64,000 nucleotides of DNA from a phage (GCA_025823825.1 GCA_025823825.1_4720.1); one strand, 5' to 3'; counted from the first letter of the stretch, positions 2,498 to 17,865 are shown. Numbers and translations: made by a program. Notes: generated by a model from the letters alone, not told the origin.

Positions 2498-4036
2498 TTA
2501 CTCCAACACATAACGTGGGTTACTGTATATGTTAGCCCATATACCAACGTCGTCGCCTGATTCAATAATCACAGCGAAACGAAACGCAACATCAGACTCA
2601 CGATAGGTTACCGCGTACGCTTTCGTTTCTGGCGATGCTAAATAGCTCAAGTTCAGACGTTGAGGCAGGTCTAACCCCAAGGACATGGTACAAGACGTAA
2701 CGCCCTGCTTATCGGGGTTCAGTCTGTAATTCACATCCACCTTCAGGCTTTTCGTAACCTGCGTAATCGCACTATGCACTTTGGTAACCGTTTTGCCTTT
2801 CTTATCCTTTTCTGTTTCGAAAAGAACGTCGGTAATTTCGGTTACAACCAGGCGCGGTGTGGATTCGCGGTTAGCGTCAAGCCATTCATCCAGTAACGTC
2901 TTTAAGAAGTTCAAAGAATCAATCGCGCGCCAAGCAAGGTTAGGTGGATTGCACGCTTCCATTAGAATGGCTGTGTTGGATCCACCTAGCGGAAGATGCA
3001 CGCTCTTACCGAGGCCCGTCGGACGCATCGTAAGATCGCACTCGCCCTCAAGAATATCGCGATGATATTGACGATGATGAAGGTTATCCGTGTATGCGAT
3101 ATACACTGACTCCGTTGTCCCATGCTCTAATACCCGAGATGCATGCGTACGCATAATCTCAACAGCGTCATCCGGCTTGCTTAAATAGATAACACTATAC
3201 GCACTATCGCTAATCCTTTTCCCTAACTCAAGACGTCCCTTGTTGTCTTTATCAGTGTTACCACCGAAATAGATGTAGCGGCCATCTTTCGCACGCTCTT
3301 GCTGCTGGTTGGTGGTAAAGTAGCAGCGTGAGAACGTAAAGAACGGGCTTATTTCCGGTTCGGGGCTCCAATACCCCTTAGCCGGAAGTTCGCGGCGTAT
3401 TTGGGTTCTTACAGCCCAGTCCTGGTTTTGTGACAGATATGTTCCACGCGTCGCCAGCATATCCGCACGTTCGTTACCTACATTGCCCTCATGTCCAGGA
3501 ACGTAGCGCAGCGAAATATCGATAGCGTCGCGCTTCGCATCCCTTATCGCGCTATCGAGTTTCCGCCACCGTTCCGCATTCATTAACGGTTTATTGTCGG
3601 ATTTAACCCAGTTGTTCTCTCGCCAATTAGCAAGATGGTTGGTGGCACCTACAACAACATATTGGCTGTCCGACAACAGCTGGATCCGTTTTGCCCCCTT
3701 TGCTTTTCCAAGTTCAATCGCACGTATTGCGGCATCCAACTCAGCCTGATTGTTCGTTACGTTGAAACCCAAAGCCTCTAACTCATCCACGTATTCCTTG
3801 GGTTCGACCAGCACAGCGTCTTTAGGAAAGTCGAGTTTAGGGTCAACATAACCGTATTGCGTTGGTTTGGGCTTCCCACTTTTTGAGGGTTCCAAGGTGC
3901 CTTTTATTTCTTTCACCATATCGTAGGTGTAGCCATGCACGCCGTAGCCACCATACCCACTCGATGTTGGACGGGATCCTCCATCGCAGTAGAAAACGGC
4001 ACCAAGCTCAGTATTTCCTGCCATTGTAAACCTCAT
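2498..4036 (-). CDS. rnh: ribonuclease H domain protein with ~300-aa C-terminal extension
   Basis: N-terminal ~200 aa carry RNase HI hallmarks: ...VFYCDGGSRP... (Asp), ...NNQAELDAAIRAIE... (Glu), ...LLSDSQYVV... (Asp), ...HEGNVGNERADMLA... (Asp). Probable true start is the second ATG at 4024 (GAGG 7 nt upstream). Confidence 0.85.
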   Translation of the reverse strand: MRFTMAGNTELGAVFYCDGGSRPTSSGYGGYGVHGYTYDMVKEIKGTLEPSKSGKPKPTQYGYVDPKLDFPKDAVLVEPKEYVDELEALGFNVTNNQAELDAAIRAIELGKAKGAKRIQLLSDSQYVVVGATNHLANWRENNWVKSDNKPLMNAERWRKLDSAIRDAKRDAIDISLRYVPGHEGNVGNERADMLATRGTYLSQNQDWAVRTQIRRELPAKGYWSPEPEISPFFTFSRCYFTTNQQQERAKDGRYIYFGGNTDKDNKGRLELGKRISDSAYSVIYLSKPDDAVEIMRTHASRVLEHGTTESVYIAYTDNLHHRQYHRDILEGECDLTMRPTGLGKSVHLPLGGSNTAILMEACNPPNLAWRAIDSLNFLKTLLDEWLDANRESTPRLVVTEITDVLFETEKDKKGKTVTKVHSAITQVTKSLKVDVNYRLNPDKQGVTSCTMSLGLDLPQRLNLSYLASPETKAYAVTYRESDVAFRFAVIIESGDDVGIWANIYSNPRYVLE

Positions 4037-4074: not shown

Positions 4075-4626
4075 TTACCGATTACCGTCGGTTGACGTTG
4101 GTTGATTGCGATTGACTTTCATTGACCGCAGTTTTCCGCCGTTAATTACGCATTGATTGCGTTGTTCGACGGAGGTCAGACTATTACAAACATAATAGGT
4201 ATCGATAAAACGATCAACGCGTTCTTGAAACTTCCTCTCGTCAACTTGCTCTTTTTCAAAAGTTCGTAACGCTCGATCAACCTCACCCTGGAGAATCCGG
4301 TTCTGTTCAACCATACTGTCGATTAAACGGCCTCGTACTTCGTTCGATGTGTAGAGTTGACGAATCAGTTCTCGGTTGGTGTCTCGCGCATAACGCAATG
4401 TTGTATTTTCCTGACGTAAACTATTCACATCAGCCATCAAGGTAATGATTTTTTCGCCAGCAAATAACGTCACGATACCCAATACGATGAAAAAACCCGT
4501 AATCAAGAATATCGAGGACTGTCGAGCTCCATCTCGACGAGAACGTGTAGGCGGTCGCTTACTTCGCCGAAACAACTCGCGAAGAAAAGGGAAAAGCCAG
4601 GGCAACGCCTTGAGTGTAGTAAACAT
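4075..4626 (-). CDS. membrane-anchored coiled-coil protein (184 aa)
   Basis: Start moved to internal ATG at 4626 (AAGGA upstream), because the longer ORF would overlap the divergent gene. Basic N-terminus, one predicted TM helix (SSIFLITGFFIVLGIVTLFAG), then a heptad-rich charged region. Confidence 0.5.
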   Translation of the reverse strand: MFTTLKALPWLFPFLRELFRRSKRPPTRSRRDGARQSSIFLITGFFIVLGIVTLFAGEKIITLMADVNSLRQENTTLRYARDTNRELIRQLYTSNEVRGRLIDSMVEQNRILQGEVDRALRTFEKEQVDERKFQERVDRFIDTYYVCNSLTSVEQRNQCVINGGKLRSMKVNRNQPTSTDGNR

Positions 4627-4680
4627 GCGTGTGTCCTTGATAGTATGAAATTTCCAATACAACTTAACCGAGGACGTCGA

Positions 4681-6021
4681 ATGATTAGTATTTTTGGTTT
4701 TTATACGTACAAAGGGTACGCTAATAACCACCCAAAAACCACGGCGAAATTCGGTGAGTTCAGTCAGCACAGTGCTACGTTCAGTCGCGAGATCGGCATC
4801 TATACCAACACGGCGTACGCACGTACGACCTTATTAGTGTTGAATGCAGAAAACGAAGCTGGTGAGGCACAAACGCTGGATGACGACACCGCAGGCCGCA
4901 TTCTTCAGGTTGGTCAATGGTTGCTGGAAAAAGCCTCATCGGGCGAAATCCAGGAAGACCGAGACCAAGTTATCAGCTACCTAAAAGACGACTTCACAAC
5001 GTATCTGGATTCTATCGACATCCCAACACCCACCACCGATGGGAAAGTCTATCTACCGGCGTGGATCAGTTTCAAGATAACAGCCACCGGCGATGTTGTC
5101 AAGATTTGGTTGTCTGATAGCGTATTCCAAAGTCAATATCCAAAATACGAATATGAAGTCGTTCCTCCTGTTCCTAAGGATCAGTTAGATACCTTCTTCG
5201 AAGATCTGGCAACATTGAAGAAACTGGTTGACAGTCGAAGCAGCGAGAAACTGACCGAAGAAATCAACGAGGTGCGCGACCAATTCCCAGACACACAATT
5301 GTGGACGAAAACCTATAAAGCGTACGATTACACCGACGATTCGAAATACATTAATACCGATTGGACGGTGATTATCTACGGTGCAGCAGGTAACAACATT
5401 GATAATATCAAGGAGTTCCTGCAAAACTGGATTCTTAGCAATAGCACGCACGGACGTCCAGACTGGGAAATCGTTCTGCCGGATCTTTTTATTCCGACAG
5501 AACACATCTTCATCCCAATCTGGAACCGCCACAGTGCGCCAGAGATGACCAATCAGGCACGTATCTATAGCCCTATCTTCGATGATTCGTTGATGGATAC
5601 CTACCTGAAAAACTTTGCTGATGGTTACGGCGAAACCGCCGAAGTCCGTAAAACGCTTCAAGCGGTGCCGACGTTGTGGCGTTCGATCGGTTTCTTAAGC
5701 GTTGGTAACTCACGTAACCGTGACGGTAAACTTAAGTTCTACGATCGTTGGCCGCAATACGCGCTCATCAGCACAACCAGCATCGACATTAACCGTATCG
5801 ACGATGCGACACGTGAATTCATCACGTTCACTTACGAAATGCTGAAACTGGCAGAATCGCTCACCGAAGACGACCCGGTACCGTTGGGTTATAGTCGTGT
5901 TACGCGCGGTAGCAATAGCTTCTTAGCGAAAAGCCACAACGATGTTCAGTATCTCTTCTTAACAAAAGAAGCGTTCCTGAAGAAAATGCCGGATGAAGCC
6001 GACACGCCTGTTGGAGGTTGA
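4681..6021 (+). CDS. hypothetical protein (446 aa)
   Basis: Track ORF 4645..6021 trimmed to ATG at 4681, which has GAGGA 8 nt upstream; divergent from 4075..4626. Confidence 0.6.
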   Translation: MISIFGFYTYKGYANNHPKTTAKFGEFSQHSATFSREIGIYTNTAYARTTLLVLNAENEAGEAQTLDDDTAGRILQVGQWLLEKASSGEIQEDRDQVISYLKDDFTTYLDSIDIPTPTTDGKVYLPAWISFKITATGDVVKIWLSDSVFQSQYPKYEYEVVPPVPKDQLDTFFEDLATLKKLVDSRSSEKLTEEINEVRDQFPDTQLWTKTYKAYDYTDDSKYINTDWTVIIYGAAGNNIDNIKEFLQNWILSNSTHGRPDWEIVLPDLFIPTEHIFIPIWNRHSAPEMTNQARIYSPIFDDSLMDTYLKNFADGYGETAEVRKTLQAVPTLWRSIGFLSVGNSRNRDGKLKFYDRWPQYALISTTSIDINRIDDATREFITFTYEMLKLAESLTEDDPVPLGYSRVTRGSNSFLAKSHNDVQYLFLTKEAFLKKMPDEADTPVGG

Positions 6022-6023
6022 TT

Positions 6024-6650
6024 ATGGCTGTAACACGCATGACGCCAAGTCCCGGTGCGGTCGGGGTATTCACAGTATCAGCGCCGTTCTCCGTTGGTGC
6101 GTCAACGCTATATACTGTTACAGCGTTGCGAAGATTCAGCGAAGTCATCGGTAGTGGAATCGATCTATTTACGGAACTGTACGAACCGTTATCAATAGAC
6201 AAATCCACTTTCGAAGCGCATCTCGAAGCGAATGCTTATCTCGTCACGTTGCAACCGGATTACGGTGCACCCGTACTGGTACCTGATACGTATATCACGT
6301 CGTACCCAAAGAACGATTCCTTGCGGTATCGTCGCATTATTCTGGGTATCGATTTCGGGCCTCTTCCTCCCGGTCTTGACCTTTCGTATTTAACAACGAT
6401 ATTGAAAGGTAAGGCTAGTGATATTCTTGGTGTCGAACCTGAAGTTAAAACGATGGAAATCACTCTCGATGATACCGTTACTCAGGAACAGCATCAGATA
6501 AACGAAGCCCGTCGTCAGGCTGCGATAAAAGAGCGAGATACCATTTACGCACGCTGTGAAACGCAAGAGAAGCAGATAACGGCTTTACTTGCAACCCAAA
6601 AGCAACTTATCAAATTGCTTCAAGACGCCGGTATCAATCCGACACCTTAA
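6024..6650 (+). CDS. hypothetical protein (208 aa)
   Basis: Track ORF begins at a TTG; the ATG at 6024 has GGAGG 6 nt upstream and overlaps the stop of the upstream gene. Confidence 0.55.
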   Translation: MAVTRMTPSPGAVGVFTVSAPFSVGASTLYTVTALRRFSEVIGSGIDLFTELYEPLSIDKSTFEAHLEANAYLVTLQPDYGAPVLVPDTYITSYPKNDSLRYRRIILGIDFGPLPPGLDLSYLTTILKGKASDILGVEPEVKTMEITLDDTVTQEQHQINEARRQAAIKERDTIYARCETQEKQITALLATQKQLIKLLQDAGINPTP

Positions 6651-6656
6651 CATATT

Positions 6657-6688
6657 CCCTCCTCCTTCCCTGACGGGTTGGAGGAGGG
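6657..6688. terminator. conserved CCTCC/GGAGG hairpin element (family member 1)
   Basis: CCCTCCTCC-TTCCC-TGAC-GGGTT-GGAGGAGGG; flanked by CATAT on the 5' side and TTATG on the 3' side. Confidence 0.6.
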
Positions 6689-6702
6689 TTATGCCGTCAA
6701 GC

Positions 6703-6717
6703 AAAAAAAAAAAAAAA
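6703..6717. repeat. A15 homopolymer tract
   Basis: 15 consecutive A between the two hairpins; on the minus strand it is a U15 run, but it lies downstream of the second hairpin in minus-strand transcription, so it is not the U-tract of a canonical intrinsic terminator. Confidence 0.9.
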
Positions 6718-6722
6718 TGATA

Positions 6723-6755
6723 GTCACAGGCCCTCCAATGAAGGAGAGCCGTGAC
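6723..6755 (-). terminator. hairpin immediately after stop of 6763..7482
   Basis: GTCACAGGCCCTCC-AATGAA-GGAGAGCCGTGAC imperfect inverted repeat; the A15/T15 run is adjacent. Confidence 0.55.
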
Positions 6756-6762
6756 CGTCAGT

Positions 6763-7482
6763 TTAGGATGCGGATAATCTAGCGTACTTCTGTCGAATAT
6801 AGTTCTTACGGCGAACTTCGTCATCCTCGTCACGCCATTCGAGATAAGCAACGAAACGGCGTAACTGTGCCGCAGTCATCGTTGACGATCGGTCTTTTAC
6901 ATCTAGAACGACGTAACGAACGTCATCAACGCCGTCGCAACCAACATAACGGAATACCAAAAGACCGTTATCGTATTCAATGATGATAACTTCGAATCGT
7001 TTCTCGAACAAATAAAACAGTTCTGATTCAATGATCATCGGAACTACGCATTTATCATCATGATCGATGATTTTCATCATCACCCGTAACGCGCGAGGAG
7101 TATGACGAGCGAACTGACCGTCGAAACGTTGTTTCATCGTTTGTTCCACGTCGTCTGTTTTTGTTCCAGGCCAAGGACGCACTACAGATTTCGGTGGTGT
7201 AAGACGGCAGCGGTACGCTTGTATAAACAACAGAATATCAGCAACATTAGGAAATTCATCCTGGTCTTTGTATAGCTTACGGATAATATCCGGGATCGTA
7301 GTCAACAAATATTTCTTATCGCCTCCCACTTTCTCGAGATTAGCGATATGTCCTTCTACCACAGGCTGGTAAACAAAATTATACCAGTGGTGGTATTTTG
7401 CAACGTGTTGGTATTTCGGGATGAGATTAAGAACAGTATTTACTGCGCGTTTTAATGGGTTCATCAGAAGAATCCTTCTCAT
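6763..7482 (-). CDS. hypothetical protein (239 aa)
   Basis: Track ORF; ATG overlaps the stop of the upstream gene (ATGA); last gene of an operon behind the promoter-like motif at ~9.2 kb. Confidence 0.6.
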   Translation of the reverse strand: MRRILLMNPLKRAVNTVLNLIPKYQHVAKYHHWYNFVYQPVVEGHIANLEKVGGDKKYLLTTIPDIIRKLYKDQDEFPNVADILLFIQAYRCRLTPPKSVVRPWPGTKTDDVEQTMKQRFDGQFARHTPRALRVMMKIIDHDDKCVVPMIIESELFYLFEKRFEVIIIEYDNGLLVFRYVGCDGVDDVRYVVLDVKDRSSTMTAAQLRRFVAYLEWRDEDDEVRRKNYIRQKYARLSAS

Positions 7483-7913
7483 GTTTTAATATGCACATCG
7501 TCAATCCCCTCGGTAATCCAGCCGATGGGAAGGACAATCGTTGTTATCGTGTTATGTGTGTAAGGATTAAGAAAATGGAAATAGTAATTTGTGTTGGATT
7601 GTTCGATACGTAGGTCGAGCTGTGCGTCTTCAGGTAACCGTAACCAAGCACCGTACAGTTCATTAAACTTACGCTGAATTTTACCGGGGTTCATTGGAAC
7701 CCCACGACCACGTTGATGCAGCTGACGTAATGATTCAATCAAACACTCAGAGATACCCGTTGTCGTTCCGTTATCGCTCGTATCAACAACGATGAACTCT
7801 CGTGACCCACGACCAAGATAAAAACCAGCAACAAAAGCTGCAGCAACAAAAAATATCGTACCGATACCAATATACCAGTAGTAAGCATCCATAACGGCCT
7901 CACTTATACCCAA
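7479..7913 (-). CDS. membrane protein (144 aa)
   Basis: Track ORF; N-terminal hydrophobic helix YYWYIGIGTIFFVAAAFVAGFYLG. Confidence 0.6.
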   Translation of the reverse strand: MGISEAVMDAYYWYIGIGTIFFVAAAFVAGFYLGRGSREFIVVDTSDNGTTTGISECLIESLRQLHQRGRGVPMNPGKIQRKFNELYGAWLRLPEDAQLDLRIEQSNTNYYFHFLNPYTHNTITTIVLPIGWITEGIDDVHIKT

Positions 7914-8437
7914 TAGTCGGCAAGCGGTTTCACCTTATTAATGGGCAACTGTACTTTACCGATGTTCTCTACATCCGCATCCGCATAGAGAACAATTTTA
8001 TCATCGTCTCTTTCCCAACGAATAATGAATCGACCAGGAAGAAGATTACCCTGTTCAAGAGACGCAGTAACCTGTTGTGTTAAAACAGACAACCAAGCAG
8101 GCATCAGTGTTGCGATGTCTAAGTCATTTGACCACTCAGCGCGTTGCTCCACTGGACGTAACATACGTTCGACGGTGCGTTGAACTGTTGCGGTGATATA
8201 GCCTTTATCTTCGTCACTGATTGGATCAGGGCGAGACACAAAACGTTCAGCAGGCTTGTGGGTAATATACTCATGCAAATCGATGAGTGGTGTTGTCATA
8301 GTACTCGCTCCATCAGAATGTAATTGGGTAACCCGTAGGGTTGTCTGCATGCTATTCAGCAGCGCAAAAGCGCCATAAACAACAATGATACTAAGTACGA
8401 CCAAAACAGAAATCATTAATGTGTATTGCATTGCCAT
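7904..8437 (-). CDS. membrane protein (177 aa)
   Basis: Track ORF; N-terminal hydrophobic helix LMISVLVVLSIIVVYGAFALL. Confidence 0.6.
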   Translation of the reverse strand: MAMQYTLMISVLVVLSIIVVYGAFALLNSMQTTLRVTQLHSDGASTMTTPLIDLHEYITHKPAERFVSRPDPISDEDKGYITATVQRTVERMLRPVEQRAEWSNDLDIATLMPAWLSVLTQQVTASLEQGNLLPGRFIIRWERDDDKIVLYADADVENIGKVQLPINKVKPLADYWV

Positions 8438-8498
8438 CTCCTACTCACACGTATCTTGAAGATTAGTTAAAATCAACAAAAGAAAAAACGATATAAAG

Positions 8499-8526
8499 CA
8501 AGGTCCTCTGATATCAGAGGACCTTG
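8499..8526. terminator. perfect 28-nt palindrome (13-bp stem) inside the operon
   Basis: CAAGGTCCTCTGA-TA-TCAGAGGACCTTG between the genes 8533..9189 and 7904..8437; on the minus strand it is followed by a T-rich run (CTTTATATCGTTTTTTCTTTTG). Confidence 0.55.
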
Positions 8527-8532
8527 GATCAA

Positions 8533-9189
8533 TTAGCTTGCAGCTTCTTCATTTGTATCAGGTTTGCTTCCCCCTAACAAACCGTCAAACAGACCCGTAT
8601 GTTTCAGGTAGAAGAGAGCGATAGCACCCATTGCCGCTGCGCTCGTCGCCGTTAACGCAACCCCAGCACGATACTGCCATTTACGGTCAGGCTTTTGATC
8701 AAGCGCCATACGACGCATGTATTCAGCCTCTGCTTCATTCCGATGAATTTCGGATTCAGCCAAGCGGGCTAAGGTATCGCGGTCAAGGTTATCATAACGT
8801 ACGTTCATGGTGGTTTCCTCTTGTTTGGAAGTTGATTGCTTAGTGGATTCTTGGTCAACAGTCGTTTCAGATGGTTCAAACGGCTGGTTGTTCATTTTCT
8901 TATCTTTATCGGACATGATGGACTCCTTCGATTTTTGAGATGAAATTGATTTAAACCATCGTGGATGGCGGTATTCTGTTTTACATGTACAGTTAAGTTT
9001 CTCGTGCAGGAAAGCGTAAAAACGTTTTGCGCCTACACGTAAGGCTTTCAGCATTACCCATCCACGAGCACTCAAACGGTGTAGCTGTTGCGGTATGTCT
9101 AGTTTCCTAGCCAAGCGAAAGTATCTTTCAATCACTTCGATAGGAAACCATTGTTGTTCCACATCGGTGAGACTGAAAGTCTTATCCAT
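8533..9189 (-). CDS. C-terminally membrane-anchored protein (218 aa)
   Basis: Track ORF; C-terminal hydrophobic segment GVALTATSAAAMGAIALFYL. An in-frame internal ATG at 8916 has a strong AAGGAG upstream and could be the real start (127 aa). Confidence 0.5.
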   Translation of the reverse strand: MDKTFSLTDVEQQWFPIEVIERYFRLARKLDIPQQLHRLSARGWVMLKALRVGAKRFYAFLHEKLNCTCKTEYRHPRWFKSISSQKSKESIMSDKDKKMNNQPFEPSETTVDQESTKQSTSKQEETTMNVRYDNLDRDTLARLAESEIHRNEAEAEYMRRMALDQKPDRKWQYRAGVALTATSAAAMGAIALFYLKHTGLFDGLLGGSKPDTNEEAAS

Positions 9190-9212
9190 GAATGAAATCT
9201 CGCTGGCTTACT

Positions 9213-9237
9213 TCACCTAAGTAATATAGCCGTGAAA
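9213..9237 (-). promoter_or_regulatory. promoter-like motif, copy 1 (TATATTAC core)
   Basis: Minus-strand reading TTTCACGGCTATATTACTTAGGTGA, about 25 nt upstream of the ATG at 9189; near-identical to the copies at 21.76 kb and 58.6 kb. Confidence 0.55.
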
Positions 9238-9339
9238 AATGTTGGATTAAGTTAAATACTGCAACCGTAACTGATTTTATGGGCTTTTAGCCTAAACCAA
9301 TCATCTTCGGAATCATCATCTTTGAAACAGGAATCTATC

Positions 9340-10161
9340 ATGGAAAAAGTATTTGTTTGTAAGTTGTTTACCAACGGCAATAGCCAACCAATGTATCTGA
9401 CCGATCCTGTTCTAGGTAATCGGAACAGTACCGTATTCAAAGAAGCTTTCGAATACGCTAAAAATAAAGCCGTGAGAACACTGACGTCTGATGACTGTAT
9501 CAACGGTATCACGTGGGCAGAGTTATTCGGTGATGCTGTTAGACACTTCGTTCAGGACGCAAGAAAACAGGAAATCAGTCTCACGACTATCGTTGTGCGC
9601 GAAAACGCAGAAATTTTATCAAACGTTTTGGTTGATTTTAATGACGTTTGCGTGTTTAATCCAGAGAACACGTTTGAACAATATCTTACTGCCCTGAACA
9701 ACCAGCTCGGTAAAGATATTCATCCCGAATTCGCCAAGTTAACGTATCAAGTGCTTTTTAACGACGTCGATCCAAACACAAAGATCAACACCAGCTTATC
9801 GCCCCTGGTAAAGAAATACGGATCGGTTCTTGCTACGGCAACACCCACCACCGATGGCGGTTACGATATCGAATTGGATGGTCCATTAAAAGAACAAGAG
9901 CCTACTGGGGTTCGGGCGGTACATCACAACCTCGTCGTTAAATCTGATGGATGCGATGAACATTACGCTATGATGAACGATGAAAACAATTACCGTTTAA
10001 GTCAAGCGATTGGTGTTCTACGCTATACCGAACCCACTGTTGTAGACGATTATACATCGACAACAACACACACCACATGTTTCATTTTCATCTACCCCAA
10101 TGAAAGTGTGTACATTACTGACTGCTACGGCAACACTGTAGATAGCTTACGTCGTTACTAA
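9340..10161 (+). CDS. hypothetical protein (273 aa)
   Basis: Track ORF 9322..10161 trimmed to the first ATG (MEKVFV...); followed by a terminator. Confidence 0.6.
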   Translation: MEKVFVCKLFTNGNSQPMYLTDPVLGNRNSTVFKEAFEYAKNKAVRTLTSDDCINGITWAELFGDAVRHFVQDARKQEISLTTIVVRENAEILSNVLVDFNDVCVFNPENTFEQYLTALNNQLGKDIHPEFAKLTYQVLFNDVDPNTKINTSLSPLVKKYGSVLATATPTTDGGYDIELDGPLKEQEPTGVRAVHHNLVVKSDGCDEHYAMMNDENNYRLSQAIGVLRYTEPTVVDDYTSTTTHTTCFIFIYPNESVYITDCYGNTVDSLRRY

Positions 10162-10857: not shown

Positions 10858-11487
10858 TTATTCAACAAACCCTGCGTTCAACAGATTGTCGTAAACACGA
10901 TTAGCGACATCAACAGGAGAATGTGTGTTACTGGTGTCTATACACAACGTTTTCGCGTCGCCGAGATAGTCCATAAAATCCATGTAACGATAACGTCGTT
11001 TATTGAATGTCGCTTCATCGATGTTATCAAACATCTGATGTTTAGCGTGACGAACACGGAACCGTCTTAAATACGTAGGATAGTCGATATCCAGATAAAC
11101 ATAGTAAGACGGCATGATAATCGACGGTAGGTTCGGCAACAATGCGTCAAACAACTTAACGTTGGCATCATTAACCTGATAAACATACGTCGAAGCAATC
11201 GAACGATCGCTAAGCACAGTCTTCCCTTCGTTAAGGGCTGGATGAATCACCTTGTTGAAGAGATGATTGCGTTGCGACATCATCGCCAATAGCTCAGTTT
11301 CTGGATCGAATCTGTTCGTTGGCGTCTGATCTTCCAGGATAAGTTTACGAATGGCTTCTCCGTAGAGTGTACCGCCGGGTTCGCGTACGACACAAACATT
11401 GTTTAAACGACTGTGTAAAGACGAGATAACCGAACTCTTTCCTGAATAATCCAGGCCTTCAATAACGATATATTTATTACGAGACAT
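10858..11487 (-). CDS. tmk: thymidylate (dTMP) kinase
   Basis: N-terminal P-loop KYIVIEGLDYSGKSS matches the Tmk signature (E. coli IVIEGLEGAGKTT); size about 210 aa; start placed at the ATG with GGAG upstream. Confidence 0.8.
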   Translation of the reverse strand: MSRNKYIVIEGLDYSGKSSVISSLHSRLNNVCVVREPGGTLYGEAIRKLILEDQTPTNRFDPETELLAMMSQRNHLFNKVIHPALNEGKTVLSDRSIASTYVYQVNDANVKLFDALLPNLPSIIMPSYYVYLDIDYPTYLRRFRVRHAKHQMFDNIDEATFNKRRYRYMDFMDYLGDAKTLCIDTSNTHSPVDVANRVYDNLLNAGFVE

Positions 11488-11503
11488 TCCCCGCTCCAAT
11501 TAA

Positions 11504-12727
11504 CTACTTCGTTTTCGCCGTTATCGGCTGCGATACTGTAATCTCGACACGATTTTCATCGGTACGTTTAACGATGATAAGGTTGCGTTCATCACCGAAC
11601 GGTTCTGAGATCTTACAAGCCTCTTTAAGATTTTCGAGAATCTTGCCATGGGGTTCAAACACCGCAAAACCGGAACTAGCGTCTATTCTTATTAGACTTA
11701 CACGCGTGCCGTTTACGGTAATAACATCTTCCGTCTTGAATTCACAACAGGAGGGTAGACGGAACTGGCCGGGAATACCGGCTACGTATGCCTCACCACC
11801 GAACATTTCTATTAATGTCACCGGTTTGAATGTTTTCTCTGGGAAAGCATTATTGAGGATATCGTTTCCATTCACAAACCAGATCGTTACTTTATCTTCA
11901 GAATACGCTAGTCGGTACGGTTGGGTTGCGGACGCTTGCGCTTTATGCTGGTTAAATAACTTTGATTTTGTCGCAATCACGGCACGACCTTCGGCGTCGA
12001 AGTACAGAACTTCATATCCAACACATCCGATAAACACGCGACGGTTATTAAGTTCCGGAATTCTGACTACTAACGCATTACCATCTTCCGTCGGTGTAAT
12101 ACCACGTAGGATGATAGATTCATTGTTCAATGTTGAGTTGCTCACGATGACGCTTCGCATTACCGCTGGCGACACTATTTTATCTGCTGCAGGTTCAAGT
12201 TGCTCCGCTGTTACAGTCATGGATCTGTCTTCGTTTTCAACTGGCCGGTTGAAAAGGATTGTTTTATTAAGACAAACAATTGGGGTAATTTCGCCGATAC
12301 TCCGTATCTTGACTGAGGGGCAATTGCACACATACGGAACAAAAACATCAATATCGTTGGTCGCTTCTTCAAGCATGCTAGCATACGCCATTGCTTCGGG
12401 ACGATCGGTGAGATGAATAACAGCATAGACGATATCGTCTTTTAACCACGCACGTTTCACTCGTCCTATAACACGATTGATGTCTACAATAACTCTCTGA
12501 GCTTTCATCTCCCATTTTACTGCATCAGTACCACCCGCAACCACGTTTGGTTTATCCGTGTTTACACGATGAAGGAAACTATTGATTATTTCCTCATTGA
12601 TCTGGATATCCTTTCTCGCAAAATTCAACAACGGAATAACGAACTCATTGTTACCGCACTTCTCTGCTCCGCGAATGATAGGAGTACACTTCTTGTTCTC
12701 ATCTGATCCCCAGATAACTTTAGTCAT
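11504..12727 (-). CDS. hypothetical protein (407 aa) in recombination cluster
   Basis: Track ORF between tmk and the RuvC-like gene; no calcineurin-type phosphoesterase or other motif recognised. Confidence 0.6.
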   Translation of the reverse strand: MTKVIWGSDENKKCTPIIRGAEKCGNNEFVIPLLNFARKDIQINEEIINSFLHRVNTDKPNVVAGGTDAVKWEMKAQRVIVDINRVIGRVKRAWLKDDIVYAVIHLTDRPEAMAYASMLEEATNDIDVFVPYVCNCPSVKIRSIGEITPIVCLNKTILFNRPVENEDRSMTVTAEQLEPAADKIVSPAVMRSVIVSNSTLNNESIILRGITPTEDGNALVVRIPELNNRRVFIGCVGYEVLYFDAEGRAVIATKSKLFNQHKAQASATQPYRLAYSEDKVTIWFVNGNDILNNAFPEKTFKPVTLIEMFGGEAYVAGIPGQFRLPSCCEFKTEDVITVNGTRVSLIRIDASSGFAVFEPHGKILENLKEACKISEPFGDERNLIIVKRTDENRVEITVSQPITAKTK

Positions 12728-12760
12728 TTTCTGTTTCCTTCTTGGGTTTTGTACATGTTG

Positions 12761-13375
12761 CTAACGGCGTTTTGTACCGACCTTCCCATTTCGATGGTCA
12801 TCAAGAATACGCCATTCTTCGAACAGGAGTTCGGCTGCGAAATAACCTACAGCGATGCTGTCTATCGCATGCTCATCAAGATTCGCTAACACAACACCGT
12901 TTCTGGGTGTGATGTTCATGAGGTTCAACACTTTCTGGCGAACATCGTCCTTACCGACACGGGACGTCATGATCCCAACAGCGCGTTTTGCGCTTCGGTT
13001 ATCAACTCCTAAGAAAGACACCGTAGGGTCAAAATCGATAACCGTTGTCTGAATCGCTGAAAACAGCTCGCTGAGCGCCATACCGCTTTGCTTGAAACGA
13101 CCGATGAACGGTGTCTCACAAGCAACCGCTTGCGGCTGGTACTCTTGTAATAACGATGTCAGCGAACGACGGTGTTCTTGGATACGTGCGGCACGATTAC
13201 CGTATCCAAGCGCAATATCGCCATCAGGATCATATCGACGCGAAGCGTGCCATGTCCCCGCATACAGCAGTTCAATATCTTCGACACGCACGTCCAAACG
13301 TAGTAACGACGCACCGAGTGTATCGGTGCCAGGGTCGATTGCCAGAATATCGTAAGCGTATTCTGGTGGGATCAT
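12761..13375 (-). CDS. RuvC-like Holliday junction resolvase
   Basis: N-terminal YDILAIDPGTDTLGASL and C-terminal LDEHAIDSIAVGYF resemble the acidic catalytic motifs of RuvC-family resolvases; ATG overlaps the stop of the upstream gene (ATGA). Confidence 0.7.
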   Translation of the reverse strand: MIPPEYAYDILAIDPGTDTLGASLLRLDVRVEDIELLYAGTWHASRRYDPDGDIALGYGNRAARIQEHRRSLTSLLQEYQPQAVACETPFIGRFKQSGMALSELFSAIQTTVIDFDPTVSFLGVDNRSAKRAVGIMTSRVGKDDVRQKVLNLMNITPRNGVVLANLDEHAIDSIAVGYFAAELLFEEWRILDDHRNGKVGTKRR

Positions 13376-14187
13376 GGTGTTACAACAGCCTCTACTGACC
13401 ATGGGAAGGTTTTCGCAACAACACCTTCCAGGAAGCGTTCAACTTCCGATTGCTCATACACCGAAAGCTTTTCGAACGGCGTTTGGTCTTCGGTTAAACC
13501 TACCGAATGAATAGGACCCAGGTCTTTAACCAGGGTAACTTCGCCTTTAACGCCTTCGCGCTTAACGATGATCGCATGATCATTAACCTTGGGATCGTAC
13601 AGCACGCGCATCATGGTTACTGCATCATCCGGTTCATAACCGAAATCGATGGCAACACGAGCATTCGTCCCTTCATCGTCCAGAAGCTTGCTTAGCGCTT
13701 TACAACGGTCTTCAATCCAATCCAACGCGACCACGGTTTCTTGGCGTAGCTGAACCTCAACCTCTTTTCCTTGTTCGTCGATACGTTTCACGGTAACAAA
13801 ATCGTGTAATAAACGGTCAGGAAGGAGAGAAGCAATAAGCTCAACGTCGGGTTCAGGTTTTTCGTTTTCCAGAATGATGGTCGCTTGTGCGTCCAGATGT
13901 TCTTTAAAACGGATATAGCGTGTTAATCGCAGAACTTCGTCTTGGGATTTTGCGTCTTCGGGAATAATCTCCGTCATGACGTTATAAATCTTTTCAGCGA
14001 ACGTCGGAATTACGGTGATTGTAATTCGTGCTGGTGTACCACGCTCCTGGTACTCATCGGCTAACTTCTTCGCCATCCCGTTAAAGTAGGTCTGGAGAAA
14101 CGGTTGCTGCGTTAAAAACATTTTCTCCAGATCGGAATAGCGATGCTTGCGTGCATGGCCTAGCTTCTTCATGGGTTTTTTCATCAA
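13372..14187 (-). CDS. hypothetical protein (271 aa)
   Basis: Track ORF directly downstream of the Rad50-like gene; no nuclease motif recognised. Confidence 0.55.
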   Translation of the reverse strand: MMKKPMKKLGHARKHRYSDLEKMFLTQQPFLQTYFNGMAKKLADEYQERGTPARITITVIPTFAEKIYNVMTEIIPEDAKSQDEVLRLTRYIRFKEHLDAQATIILENEKPEPDVELIASLLPDRLLHDFVTVKRIDEQGKEVEVQLRQETVVALDWIEDRCKALSKLLDDEGTNARVAIDFGYEPDDAVTMMRVLYDPKVNDHAIIVKREGVKGEVTLVKDLGPIHSVGLTEDQTPFEKLSVYEQSEVERFLEGVVAKTFPWSVEAVVTP

Positions 14188-14205
14188 CAGAAATCCTTAT
14201 TTGTC

Positions 14206-16662
14206 TTAAATAATCGTGACGTGTTCGTTATATGTTTCAGGGAGAATGATGTTCGTTTTATCAAGAACCATACACTCGGCTTTACGGAATGATGCATGGT
14301 TGATCACGTAGTGACTGATGAACCACACCTGGCTTACGCGGTGACCATCAACCAGACGACGAACAAAATCCATGGCATTAGATTGGTGCTGCGGATCAAA
14401 TGTTGATGCGAATTCATCTAACATCAACGGATAATCCGTAAACCCCTTGTAATGCATCATCGCGATGATGAACGCGATATTGATAATTTCCTTTTGTCCC
14501 TTACTCCCATAAACAATATCTTTTCGCGGTGTCGGATACTTCTCAGTTAAAAGCGGAAAACGATAGTTCAATCCTTGCGCGTCGATAGCACACGGGAGTA
14601 TCTGAAGTTGGTATTCCCAAATACTCGCAATGATACCATTCATGTATTCGACGAACGCGTTGATGGGACCCGCAATTGTTTCGGCAATCAGTCCGTTGGA
14701 TGGACTCAACTCATCCAGAACAAGTTGTGCGTAACTGAGCTGTTCTTCCACCTCTTTTTGTGTCGTTTCCAACTGAGCCAGAAGCTGCTGGTCGGTTTTA
14801 GCTTCCTGTAGTTGCTGTTCGACATGACTTATTCGGCGAACTGTATCAGACATCGCAGCACGTAACGATTTCGTGTAGAGGTGTTGCAGATACTCTAACC
14901 ACAGTTGCGTTAACGCTTTATCGCTGTTATCAGAACGCACCTGATCTTCCATAACCGCCGTAATGGTTTCCAATCTACCTTCCGTAGCTGTGATGGCTTG
15001 TGTTAACCGCTCAACGGTTGTTAACAACTCTGTCCTGTTCTTATAAAGCAATTCTCGACGTTGCTGTAACGGTTCAACATCAACCGCTTGTACCCGTTCG
15101 AGCATGCCTTGAAGATGCTTCCGTTCCTGTTCGGCTTGTGTGTAACGCGCAAGTTTCTCAAACGCAAGCAACCAATCGTTAATGATGCCAATGCTGCGGA
15201 ATCCTAAACCGTTTTTGCGGCCTTCTTCCAGCAGATTATCCCACATGGGTTTAATAGCGTAATAATCTTTCGTCCAACGTGTTAACTGACGATGTTGTTC
15301 CATCCAAAGCGTATAGCGCTGCACCTTCTCACTAAGCTCAGCTAACGATTTCTCCTGTTCTTCAACCCAGGCATGGCCCTTCTGAATACGTTGTTCAATA
15401 CCCGCTTTGCTGGTCTTTTCTGTCTCACCAACATGAAAGCGATAATTGCATTTTGGACAGCTGGTCTGGGGTTGATGGTTAAGGTGGTCGAGATGCGCTT
15501 CCAAATCGGCTAACGCATGTTTCGCGTTACGCAAACGCATTCTTGCCGCCTCTTCCTCCTTGATGTAAGCTTCAGCATCGTAAACATGATAGGTGTTGTC
15601 GGTATCAATCCATTCTTGGAGTAATTCCGTTAACGGAGCCTGAACTTGCGTGAGCTGTTGTAAACAAACCGCAGCGTCCAGATTCATCGTTAAAAGCTCG
15701 CCTGGATGATCTTGCTGAAGTTGTTCGTCCAAACGTGCGAGGCGGGCTTTAATCTGATCGATATCACCTTCACCAGACTGTTTCAACTGGTCAAGGATAT
15801 TATCGATACCCAACAGCTCGTCAACCTGACTTTCGAGTTTCGCATTCGCATTCGCGAGTTGCTCTCTTAGTTCAGCCAGATTCTGCTGTTCTTGTTGCGA
15901 TGTTCCTCCTTGGTAACGAACAACCGCATGAAGAAGCTCGCGATTAAAATGATGAGCACGTTGTGCGGATTCCAGAAGCTGTCGTTGATCAACATCACTA
16001 TCGAATAACGGCAATCCCATCATCGCTTCGAGCGCTGAGCGTTGCTGCTTTAACTCCGCTTCCAATCCCTGGTGGTCGGTTCCGGTGTATTTCGCTTCAA
16101 TGCGCTGTGATGTTTCAACCAACTTATTCAATGTATGCTCATTCACCGCTTTCAGTGAACGTACTTGTTGCTTAACAACCTGAAACAACTCGAGCGCATA
16201 ATCGACGTTAACCGGGCATATCTGCGTTAATCGTTCGCGACGTTTCATCGGTCCCATTTCGGTGAACTGGTAAGCTGTTTCGTAACCTAACAACAAACGA
16301 ATGGTGTCGTCATTAAGTTCGAAATGTTCTTCGATCAGTTTCCACTGGGCCGGTTGTGTGCCACCACCATTCAGGTTCTCGCTATCGTTAACGTAGAACT
16401 CATGCTTAAACCCTTTTTCTAAACGACTGATAAGACGGTATTGCTTATTACGGTGTTCGCAGCGGTACTCGTAATACCCGTCTTTATCAAAATCGGCACG
16501 CTCAGGAACGGTCGGATACAGCAAAGGCAATAGACTACTCTTACCCGAACCATTACTGCCTAAAATGAGTTGTACGGGATTATCTGGCCGGATGACCAGC
16601 TCCCGAATCATCCCGGTATCAAAACGATTGAATCCACGTAAGTGGAGATAGGTGCATCGCAT
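14206..16662 (-). CDS. Rad50/SbcC-like ATPase with zinc hook
   Basis: Walker A LILGSNGSGKSS; long central coiled coil with CPKC hook at mid-length; C-terminal signature-like GSKGQKE, Walker B LMLDEF and H-loop FISHY. Start set to the ATG at 16662 (MRCTYLHLRGF, AAGGA upstream). Confidence 0.85.
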   Translation of the reverse strand: MRCTYLHLRGFNRFDTGMIRELVIRPDNPVQLILGSNGSGKSSLLPLLYPTVPERADFDKDGYYEYRCEHRNKQYRLISRLEKGFKHEFYVNDSENLNGGGTQPAQWKLIEEHFELNDDTIRLLLGYETAYQFTEMGPMKRRERLTQICPVNVDYALELFQVVKQQVRSLKAVNEHTLNKLVETSQRIEAKYTGTDHQGLEAELKQQRSALEAMMGLPLFDSDVDQRQLLESAQRAHHFNRELLHAVVRYQGGTSQQEQQNLAELREQLANANAKLESQVDELLGIDNILDQLKQSGEGDIDQIKARLARLDEQLQQDHPGELLTMNLDAAVCLQQLTQVQAPLTELLQEWIDTDNTYHVYDAEAYIKEEEAARMRLRNAKHALADLEAHLDHLNHQPQTSCPKCNYRFHVGETEKTSKAGIEQRIQKGHAWVEEQEKSLAELSEKVQRYTLWMEQHRQLTRWTKDYYAIKPMWDNLLEEGRKNGLGFRSIGIINDWLLAFEKLARYTQAEQERKHLQGMLERVQAVDVEPLQQRRELLYKNRTELLTTVERLTQAITATEGRLETITAVMEDQVRSDNSDKALTQLWLEYLQHLYTKSLRAAMSDTVRRISHVEQQLQEAKTDQQLLAQLETTQKEVEEQLSYAQLVLDELSPSNGLIAETIAGPINAFVEYMNGIIASIWEYQLQILPCAIDAQGLNYRFPLLTEKYPTPRKDIVYGSKGQKEIINIAFIIAMMHYKGFTDYPLMLDEFASTFDPQHQSNAMDFVRRLVDGHRVSQVWFISHYVINHASFRKAECMVLDKTNIILPETYNEHVTII

Positions 16663-16776
16663 GCTATGATAATCCTTCTTCGATACCTTCTGAACCCGTG
16701 GTTCAGAATGCGAAGCTGAAGCCATACTTCAGCGTTATTTTCTATATCGTTATTTAAATCAGTAGGAGATTACAGC

Positions 16777-17865
16777 ATGAGCGATCTGGCAACAGACAAT
16801 CGCACAAAAGGGAGTCAGCTAGCTCCAGACAACAACGTAAGCGTTTTCCGTATCTTTGCCTTGGGTACTGTTGCTGCCGACTTTTCCAATAAAAGTCTGG
16901 AGGAAGATCCTAACCAAACGCTGGAGGTCTTTCTTGATGAGATGATGTCGGGCGCTGATGGGAAAGTTGAAGCGGCGGGAAGCGTTAAAGAAGTCAGTGC
17001 AACAGACGCTCAAGGGAACAGCTATACGGCGAAAGCGGCAACAACAACCAGCGTACAGTGTTACTGGTTACCCTTCGGCAGTAACCGGATGACAGCACCT
17101 AACTTGAGGAAAGGTCAGCGTGTGGTGGTCTGGCGTACCGCCGATGAAGAACAACTCTACTGGCAGCCCAAAGGAGGGGATAGCGAGCTGATGACCATGG
17201 AATCGGTTATCCTCACCGTCAGCGCACGTCCTAGCGCTAAGAAGGACCGTAAATCGATTTCAACGGAAGACTGCTATTACCTAATGGTTGATACCTTCCT
17301 CAAGAAAGCGGTTATCGGTACCAGCGCACAGCTTGGTGAAGTTACCCAAGTTTACATGGAACTTAATCTGGACGAGGGTTACCTACAGGTTGCGGACAGC
17401 GTCCATCAAAATCTGCTGTTACTCCATTTCGTTGAACATATGCTGCGTTATCAAAACCAGGACGACAGCATCATCGACGTGACAAAAAAGAACATCACAT
17501 TCCAGTGCGAGGATACGCTCAAAGCAATTGCTAAGAACGATATCCGAATGAAAGCAAAAAATATTTATACGGAATGTGAGAACTTCGAGCGTACCAGCAA
17601 AACAGAAAGCGTTACGAGTCAGAATGTTTCTTTGAAGTGTGATCGTTACACCGCGCAAGTATCAGGACAGACCACGTTTAAATGTCCGAATACGGTATTC
17701 ACTGGAGCTGTAAGCTTCACAGGTGAAGACGGAAACACGATGACGTTGAATGGGAACTTCATACACGTCGCAGGCTCTTGGCGTTCACCAACCGGAACAA
17801 ACGTATACACCCACGATCACGGTGGTGTAGATCGTGGCAGCGGTCGTACAGACCCATTCCAATAA
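16777..17865 (+). CDS. hypothetical protein (362 aa) with C-terminal HxH motif
   Basis: AGGAGA Shine-Dalgarno; C-terminus ...NVYTHDHGGVDRGSGRTDPFQ; followed by an A11 run and a conserved hairpin. Confidence 0.6.
   Translation: MSDLATDNRTKGSQLAPDNNVSVFRIFALGTVAADFSNKSLEEDPNQTLEVFLDEMMSGADGKVEAAGSVKEVSATDAQGNSYTAKAATTTSVQCYWLPFGSNRMTAPNLRKGQRVVVWRTADEEQLYWQPKGGDSELMTMESVILTVSARPSAKKDRKSISTEDCYYLMVDTFLKKAVIGTSAQLGEVTQVYMELNLDEGYLQVADSVHQNLLLLHFVEHMLRYQNQDDSIIDVTKKNITFQCEDTLKAIAKNDIRMKAKNIYTECENFERTSKTESVTSQNVSLKCDRYTAQVSGQTTFKCPNTVFTGAVSFTGEDGNTMTLNGNFIHVAGSWRSPTGTNVYTHDHGGVDRGSGRTDPFQ

Follow-up and report, generated by a model that had tools for sequence, protein, structure and literature searches.

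The Rad50/SbcC-like ATPase of a Goslar-like jumbo phage and its probable, distantly encoded SbcD-like partner

Introduction

Is a Rad50/SbcC-like ATPase whose gene has no nuclease gene beside it an ATPase without a partner? The question is raised by a 64,000-nucleotide stretch of phage DNA (GCA_025823825.1; the whole stretch analysed is referred to here as the window), whose minus strand carries at 14206..16662 a gene for an 818-amino-acid (aa) protein. The original prediction for this locus held that the protein bears all the Rad50/SbcC hallmarks and is without a recognisable Mre11/SbcD partner, and offered two alternatives, i.e., that the nuclease is encoded elsewhere, or that one of two flanking open reading frames (ORFs), then taken to be 271 and 407 aa long, encodes a non-canonical partner. 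Here we report that the protein is very probably the core SbcC of a phage closely related to Escherichia phage vB_EcoM_Goslar, that its probable partner is a distantly encoded SbcD-like protein, Goslar gp178, and that neither flanking ORF is the nuclease.

Results

A Rad50/SbcC-family ATPase in a relative of Goslar

Positions 10858-16725 of the window matched positions 4198-10018 of the Goslar genome (MK327938) at 97.3% nucleotide identity over 91% of the length, and four of the proteins encoded there were nearly identical to those of Goslar, namely the SbcC-like protein (99.3%), a 270-aa ORF (99.3%), a RuvC-like protein (99.5%) and a thymidylate kinase (100%). We thus assign the window, from its sequence, to a close relative of Goslar, a nucleus-forming jumbo phage of the Chimalliviridae.

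The SbcC-like protein, the orthologue of Goslar gp12, phiKZ gp165 and SPN3US gp186, matched phrog_77 (‘SbcC-like subunit’) with an E value of 4.4e-74 and Pfam SMC_N at 40.2 bits (cutoff 40). A single-sequence phmmer search against the PDB gave nothing useful, and a profile was needed. Aligning the window protein with its phiKZ-like and RAY orthologues (a three-way alignment, 26-27% identity) and searching the PDB with the profile of the three yielded a list whose top eleven matches were all Rad50, the best being 3qku (E value 2.3e-7).

The alignment located each motif of the ATPase on the minus strand. The N-terminal part holds the Walker A motif, or P-loop (GSNGSGKSS, residues 35-43, 16534..16560), which is invariant in the three proteins, and the Q-loop glutamine Q106, likewise invariant. 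The C-terminal part holds a signature-like motif (YGSKGQK, residues 718-724, 14491..14511, with S720 invariant), Walker B (PLMLDE, residues 745-750, 14413..14430, with D749 and E750 invariant), the D-loop that follows it (FD, residues 755-756, with D756 invariant; the two motifs together span 14392..14430) and the H-loop (FISHY, residues 781-785, 14308..14322, with S783 and H784 invariant). The protein thus has the split ABC head of the Rad50/SbcC family. About midway between the two halves of the head, at residues 402-405 of 818, lies the zinc-hook motif CPKC (15448..15459; C402, P403 and C405 invariant), at the midpoint of a long coiled coil that is predicted from the heptad-rich, helix-favouring character of the sequence. 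Since the key residues are invariant in orthologues that are merely 26-27% identical, the motifs are not a product of chance. Taken together with the matches to phrog_77, SMC_N and the Rad50 chains of the PDB, these features identify the predicted protein as the family’s core Rad50/SbcC-type ATPase, an ordinary component of a Goslar-like phage. The hallmarks originally listed (Walker A, CPKC, signature, Walker B and H-loop) were all recovered, and the Q-loop and D-loop can be added to them.

Genetic data from related phages agree that the ATPase is important: the SbcC-like gp186 of SPN3US is essential (PMC5105663), and phiKZ orf165 scores in an antisense oligomer (ASO) knockdown screen and is devoid of transposon insertions.

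A distant SbcD/Mre11-like protein, Goslar gp178

A tblastn search with SPN3US gp27, which is annotated as SbcD, matched Goslar at 162609-163751 (E value 3e-21). The matching gene encodes gp178, a protein of 380 aa, and lies ~153 kb from the SbcC gene on the Goslar map, outside the stretch that matches the window. Although both GenBank and RefSeq (NC_048170 162609-163751) label gp178 a ‘hypothetical protein’, it matched phrog_100 (‘SbcD-like subunit’) at 1.8e-40.

An alignment of 38 SbcD-like sequences revealed a set of invariant residues, D20-x-H22, G56-D57-x2-D60, G96-T97-x2-H100-D101, H172-G173 and H210-x-H212. Motifs I, II, IV and V of the Mre11/SbcD nucleases are thus kept, and motif III is present as a variant: in the chimallivirus proteins GT-x2-HD replaces GNHD, by a two-residue insertion and the substitution of T for N, and aligns with the G--NHD of Thermotoga maritima Mre11. 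When the profile of the family was compared with the PDB, all 15 matches at E values of 0.01 or below were Mre11/SbcD; the best, T. maritima 2q8u (9.7e-10), covered profile positions 9-245, i.e., the whole nuclease domain, and was followed by a second Mre11 structure, 3qg5 (1e-8). Moreover, several of the homologues carry a precomputed PF00149 assignment. We conclude that gp178, as read from its motifs and profiles, is a protein of the SbcD/Mre11 family, of the canonical metallophosphoesterase type but diverged.

Goslar encodes a second calcineurin-like protein, separate from gp178: gp157 (NC_048170 140999-141556), a 185-aa metallophosphoesterase-family protein of the COG4186 type.

The two genes travel together. 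Matches to SbcC were found by tblastn in 289 phage records and matches to SbcD (with the gp27 query) in 301, with a near-identical breakdown by genus. In Goslar-like phages, the SbcD-like proteins form a 90%-identity cluster of 254 members, compared with 302 members in the cluster of gp11, the 270-aa ORF. Individual bacterial assemblies also hold both regions. One Salmonella assembly carries a homologue of the 407-aa ORF (Goslar gp9) as ACI5OW_003089 and an SbcD homologue as ACI5OW_003249, in the same tag series, the longest contig being 241,126 bp for both, and one E. coli assembly carries the corresponding pair as AB9A94_14700 (gp9 homologue) and AB9A94_20475 (SbcD homologue).

This separation is documented. 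For SPN3US, phiKZ and their relatives, the SbcC and SbcD genes were described in 2016 as ‘drastically separated’ (PMC5105663), and the supplementary core-genome table of nucleus-forming phages by Prichard et al. 2023 (PMC10299810) lists the two in different blocks: cg8, a ‘putative nuclease’, comprises Goslar gp178, phiKZ gp065 and RAY gp238, and cg44, a ‘putative SbcC-like protein’, comprises Goslar gp012, phiKZ gp165 and RAY gp023. The suggestion that the nuclease partner is encoded elsewhere is therefore supported, both by the gene at 162609-163751 and by the core-genome table. Conversely, the statement that the ATPase is without a recognisable partner holds for its local neighbourhood only and not for the phage family, in which Goslar itself encodes gp178.

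Several points weigh against this assignment of the partner. As a single sequence, gp178 scored 14.8 bits against Pfam Metallophos, under the gathering score of 21.5, and a single-sequence phmmer search against the PDB returned no match; its placement comes from PHROG and profile searches. Within the 64-kb window, a hidden Markov model (HMM) of 125 SbcD sequences, run at maximum sensitivity over 443 ORFs, detected no SbcD gene (best score, 4.4 bits), compared with 392.8 bits for Goslar gp178 as the positive control. Because the window holds no SbcD gene, we infer from Goslar and further Goslar-like genomes that this phage has one. Finally, binding and cooperation of the SbcC-like and SbcD-like proteins of chimalliviruses are argued by analogy rather than from experiment. 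An earlier regular-expression scan of all window ORFs for the canonical Mre11 motifs also gave no match, and such a scan is an insufficient test for proteins of the GT-x2-HD type; since motif III is not GNHD, it would miss the chimallivirus SbcD family, and it was superseded by the tblastn and 125-sequence HMM searches.

The flanking ORFs show no sign of an Mre11-type nuclease

Two ORFs had been put forward as candidates for a local partner. The longer, of 407 aa, lies at 11504..12727 on the minus strand. The other, originally given as 271 aa, most likely starts one codon later, as in the Goslar annotation and in gene calls on metagenomic contigs, which makes it a 270-aa ORF at 13372-14184 (13372..14184, minus strand) corresponding to Goslar gp11 and lying between the SbcC and RuvC genes. 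Calcineurin-type motifs and Pfam or PHROG families were sought in both ORFs and none were found. Aligned by hhalign with the chimallivirus SbcD profile, each ORF reached a probability of 0.1%, and neither was matched in the 125-sequence HMM search. A structure model of gp11 gave no metallophosphatase match. The absence of calcineurin-type motifs from both flanking ORFs was thus borne out by every search applied (motif, Pfam, PHROG, hhalign and HMM), no diverged Mre11-family phosphoesterase emerged from the profile comparisons, and the idea of a non-canonical partner among these ORFs found no support from the profile searches of either or from the gp11 model.

gp11 and its conserved position before RuvC

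Between these two ORFs, as had been noted, lies a RuvC-like gene with an overlapping start. It occupies 12761..13375 on the minus strand and encodes a predicted Holliday-junction resolvase of 204 aa (Goslar gp10, phiKZ gp140; core gene cg40 in PMC10299810), which matched phrog_159 at 2e-21 and Pfam RuvC (PF02075) at 26.0 bits (cutoff 22.2). Its translation contains the acidic catalytic motifs AIDPGT, ACETPF and DEHAIDS, from which resolvase activity is predicted, and its start at 13375 overlaps the stop codon of gp11 by four nucleotides, as ATGA.

gp11 itself is an ORFan of the Goslar clade. In a search of 5.8 billion clustered proteins and an exhaustive HMMER search of 1.8 billion representatives, its homologues were limited to Goslar-like copies and two relatives at ~45% identity, and among deposited phages none besides Goslar carried it. 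HMMER also matched, weakly, some repeat proteins of low complexity whose Pfam content was uninformative; these matches were judged spurious. In BFVD, one unnamed 414-aa protein, A0A7D7F5P9, matched at an E value of 2.4e-4. The structure model suggests a long N-terminal helix followed by units of a helix and a three-stranded sheet, for which fold matches were uninformative, and the N-terminus is basic, with 8 K/R in the first 30 residues.

The order SbcC-gp11-RuvC is kept in relatives L018-L021, in which SbcC is 49-50% identical to that of the window. The gp11 gene lies at 6756-7640 in L018 and at 10001-10828 in L019, and L019-L021 also retain an ATGA-type overlap between gp11 and RuvC. Other genera have an unrelated or opposite-strand gene after SbcC; in RAY this gene is gp24, and hhalign found no relation between it and gp11.

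These observations raise the possibility that gp11 serves the Rad50-like ATPase as an accessory subunit specific to this clade, which would link the ATPase to RuvC or modulate the complex, either beside SbcD or in its place. The gene order and the four-nucleotide overlap persist where SbcC is only ~50% identical, gp11 diverges at about the rate of its neighbours (44-45% identity in the distant relatives, compared with 49-50% for SbcC and 52-65% for RuvC), and it is highly conserved in Goslar-like phages, forming a single 90% cluster of 302 members. On the other side stand the confinement of gp11 to this clade and the fold matches that gave no hint of function, and we consider such a subunit unlikely. 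Because the order and overlap are kept in distant relatives, there is nonetheless a modest chance that gp11 is an accessory factor of the clade; as a new factor coupling Mre11-Rad50-like end processing to junction resolution in the Goslar clade, it would be an outside candidate.

Conservation of both genes argues against a lone ATPase

A different possibility is that the Rad50-like protein no longer pairs with an Mre11-like nuclease and serves as a lone SMC-like tether or organiser of DNA in the phage nucleus, with the SbcD-like protein acting independently. The SbcC and SbcD genes do lie in different conserved blocks, with no co-transcription, the divergent neighbour of the SbcC gene is in every case a baseplate gene and never SbcD, and an interaction of the two proteins in chimalliviruses is a prediction from other systems. 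However, both genes co-occur across ~290-300 chimallivirus records with their near-identical genus breakdown, the ATPase has kept its motifs and zinc hook and the nuclease its catalytic metal ligands, and these genomes generally scatter genes that work together, the RNA polymerase subunits being one example (PMC5105663). We therefore regard a lone tether as very improbable, and a core SbcC partnered by gp178 as the better explanation.

The 407-aa ORF occupies a variable slot

The 407-aa protein shares 64% identity with Goslar gp9, compared with 99-100% for the neighbouring proteins. The difference is concentrated in one part, identity being 29% over residues 1-175 and 94% over residues 176-407. 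Among 44 homologues, the N-terminal 175 residues fall into discrete classes of identity to the window protein (~94-99%, 78%, 56% and 29%), which are independent of the divergence of the C-terminal part, itself 73-99% identical among Goslar-like phages. This pattern suggests exchange of an N-terminal module, by cassette-like exchange or diversifying selection. Across Goslar-like phages in E. coli, Salmonella and Shigella assemblies, gp9 forms 181 clusters at 90% identity, and the exact 407-aa protein was found, with the same gene order, on contigs of 235-239 kb from E. coli and Salmonella assemblies and from metagenomes. gp9 is absent from L018 and L019, and the distant relatives have either an unrelated 163-aa ORF in its place or nothing at all.

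The structure model of gp9 was poor (predicted local distance difference test score, pLDDT, 46), too poor for its fold to be judged. A resemblance to prohead proteases was considered and set aside: the best Foldseek match was T4 gp21 (5jbl; probability 0.95, E value 0.01, TM 0.38-0.40), too weak a match for so poor a model. The varicella-zoster virus (VZV) protease appeared lower in the same list. Since no His or Ser is invariant in the N-terminal domain, this domain is probably not catalytic if the resemblance is real.

Although this ORF sits in the same co-directional cluster as the ATPase gene, with short intergenic gaps, we dismiss it as a non-canonical nuclease partner, given that it matched no family and showed no relationship to the SbcD profile, that relatives keeping SbcC, gp11, RuvC and Tmk have an unrelated ORF in this slot or leave it empty, that an N-terminal half so variable (29%) beside neighbours at 99-100% does not fit a conserved enzymatic partner, and that what its poor model weakly resembles is a prohead protease rather than a nuclease.

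Gene neighbourhood and placement of the window on the Goslar map

The ATPase gene heads five co-directional minus-strand genes separated by short gaps: SbcC-like, gp11, RuvC, the 407-aa ORF and thymidylate kinase. The last, at 10858..11487 (minus strand), encodes a 209-aa protein (Goslar gp8; core gene cg32 in PMC10299810) that matched Pfam PF02223 (E value 9.6e-28) and phrog_761 (2e-36), and its start is most likely at 11487. Goslar gp009 and gp011 are absent from the core-genome table (PMC10299810).

On the other side of the ATPase gene, and diverging from it, a plus-strand gene at 16777..17865 encodes a baseplate spike/hub protein (phrog_3216, 3e-61), the counterpart of phiKZ gp164 and of Goslar gp13, a spike protein. 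This divergent pairing was kept in every chimallivirus context that we read, i.e., phiKZ-like phages, RAY, PhiPA3 (as annotated) and Eowyn (under the label ORF164). The two genes are separated by a 114-nt intergenic region (16663-16776) containing a hairpin, GCTGAAGCCATACTTCAGC, at 16715-16733, which the Goslar annotation records as a terminator. An in-frame ATG upstream of the SbcC-like gene, at 16725, sits within this hairpin; judged by the alignment with orthologues, 16662 is the better start, and it fits their N-termini.

Further upstream in the window lie two genes with chimallivirus homologues. The minus-strand gene at 2498-4036 encodes a 512-aa protein with an RNase H domain (PF00075, E value 1.9e-25), which is probably homologous to Rhc (phiKZ gp155), an RNase H-clamp protein of chimalliviruses that a 2026 preprint describes. 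The plus-strand gene at 6018-6650 encodes a DUF7194 protein (E value 3e-67), a homologue of phiKZ gp161. The positions of both relative to the cluster match those on Goslar-like contigs, and by this reasoning the DUF7194 protein would correspond to Goslar gp249 and the RNase H protein to Goslar gp246, the homologues of phiKZ gp161 and gp155, respectively. Position 1 of the window falls at the far end of the Goslar map, and, as the RNase H and DUF7194 genes precede the Tmk-SbcC cluster, the window spans the ends of the map as deposited.

Discussion

Both proteins can be assigned to their families, their genes co-occur, and the genes are separated in the genome. From these observations we propose that the partner of the window ATPase is gp178 (phiKZ gp065, SPN3US gp27), encoded in another conserved gene block, and, on the model of T4 gp46/gp47, E. 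coli SbcCD and Mre11-Rad50, that the two may come together in trans as a complex of the Mre11-Rad50 type. In such a complex, the ATPase heads would clamp DNA ends, the zinc hook would join the coiled coils, and the nuclease would resect or open the ends, feeding recombination-dependent replication and the repair of breaks. Both the physical complex and this role in the phage cycle are modelled on those systems.

The closest parallels are phiKZ (gp165/gp065) and SPN3US (gp186/gp27), whose proteins are orthologues belonging to the same core genes, cg44 and cg8, and are detected by tblastn at E values of 1e-53 to 1e-57 for SbcC and 3e-21 for SbcD. As in the Goslar clade, their SbcC and SbcD genes are split and SbcC is transcribed divergently from the baseplate spike gene, whereas sequence identity is only about 24-27%. 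The downstream genes also differ: in the Goslar clade SbcC is followed by gp11, RuvC, the variable slot and Tmk, and in other genera by unrelated genes.

In T4, gp46 and gp47 are likewise a phage-encoded Rad50-like ATPase and Mre11-like nuclease, and the pair is required for recombination-dependent replication (as cited in PMC5105663). The T4 genes are adjacent, with two small ORFs between them, whereas those of the Goslar clade are far apart; gp46, at 63.6 kDa, is also smaller than the 94.8-kDa window protein, and the SPN3US proteins have no BLASTP-level similarity to those of T4 (PMC5105663).

With E. coli SbcCD and archaeal and eukaryal Mre11-Rad50, the window ATPase shares its overall plan, a split ABC head, an antiparallel coiled coil and a CxxC zinc hook. 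Similarly, gp178 shares the calcineurin-like phosphoesterase motifs I, II, IV and V with cellular Mre11/SbcD, and the solved structures best matched by its family profile are the Mre11/SbcD proteins of T. maritima, P. furiosus and E. coli. It departs from the cellular proteins in motif III (GT-x2-HD instead of GNHD), and the signature of the ATPase reads S-K-G-Q. Moreover, the cellular genes form an operon, in contrast to the separate blocks of Goslar-like phages.

An SbcC-like ATPase with a distant SbcD-like partner is a pair of published core genes, and as a discovery the finding carries little weight; the partnerless look of the SbcC-like gene is an already known property of phiKZ-like genome organisation. 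What novelty is left lies in the two non-core ORFs, gp9 and gp11. There is also a small gain in annotation, in that Goslar gp178 can be moved from ‘hypothetical protein’ to an SbcD/Mre11-family nuclease with a variant motif III. More generally, functionally linked genes are commonly split in phiKZ-like genomes, e.g., those for the RNA polymerase subunits (PMC5105663), and with functionally paired genes so often scattered, a missing neighbour in these phages is not evidence of a missing partner.

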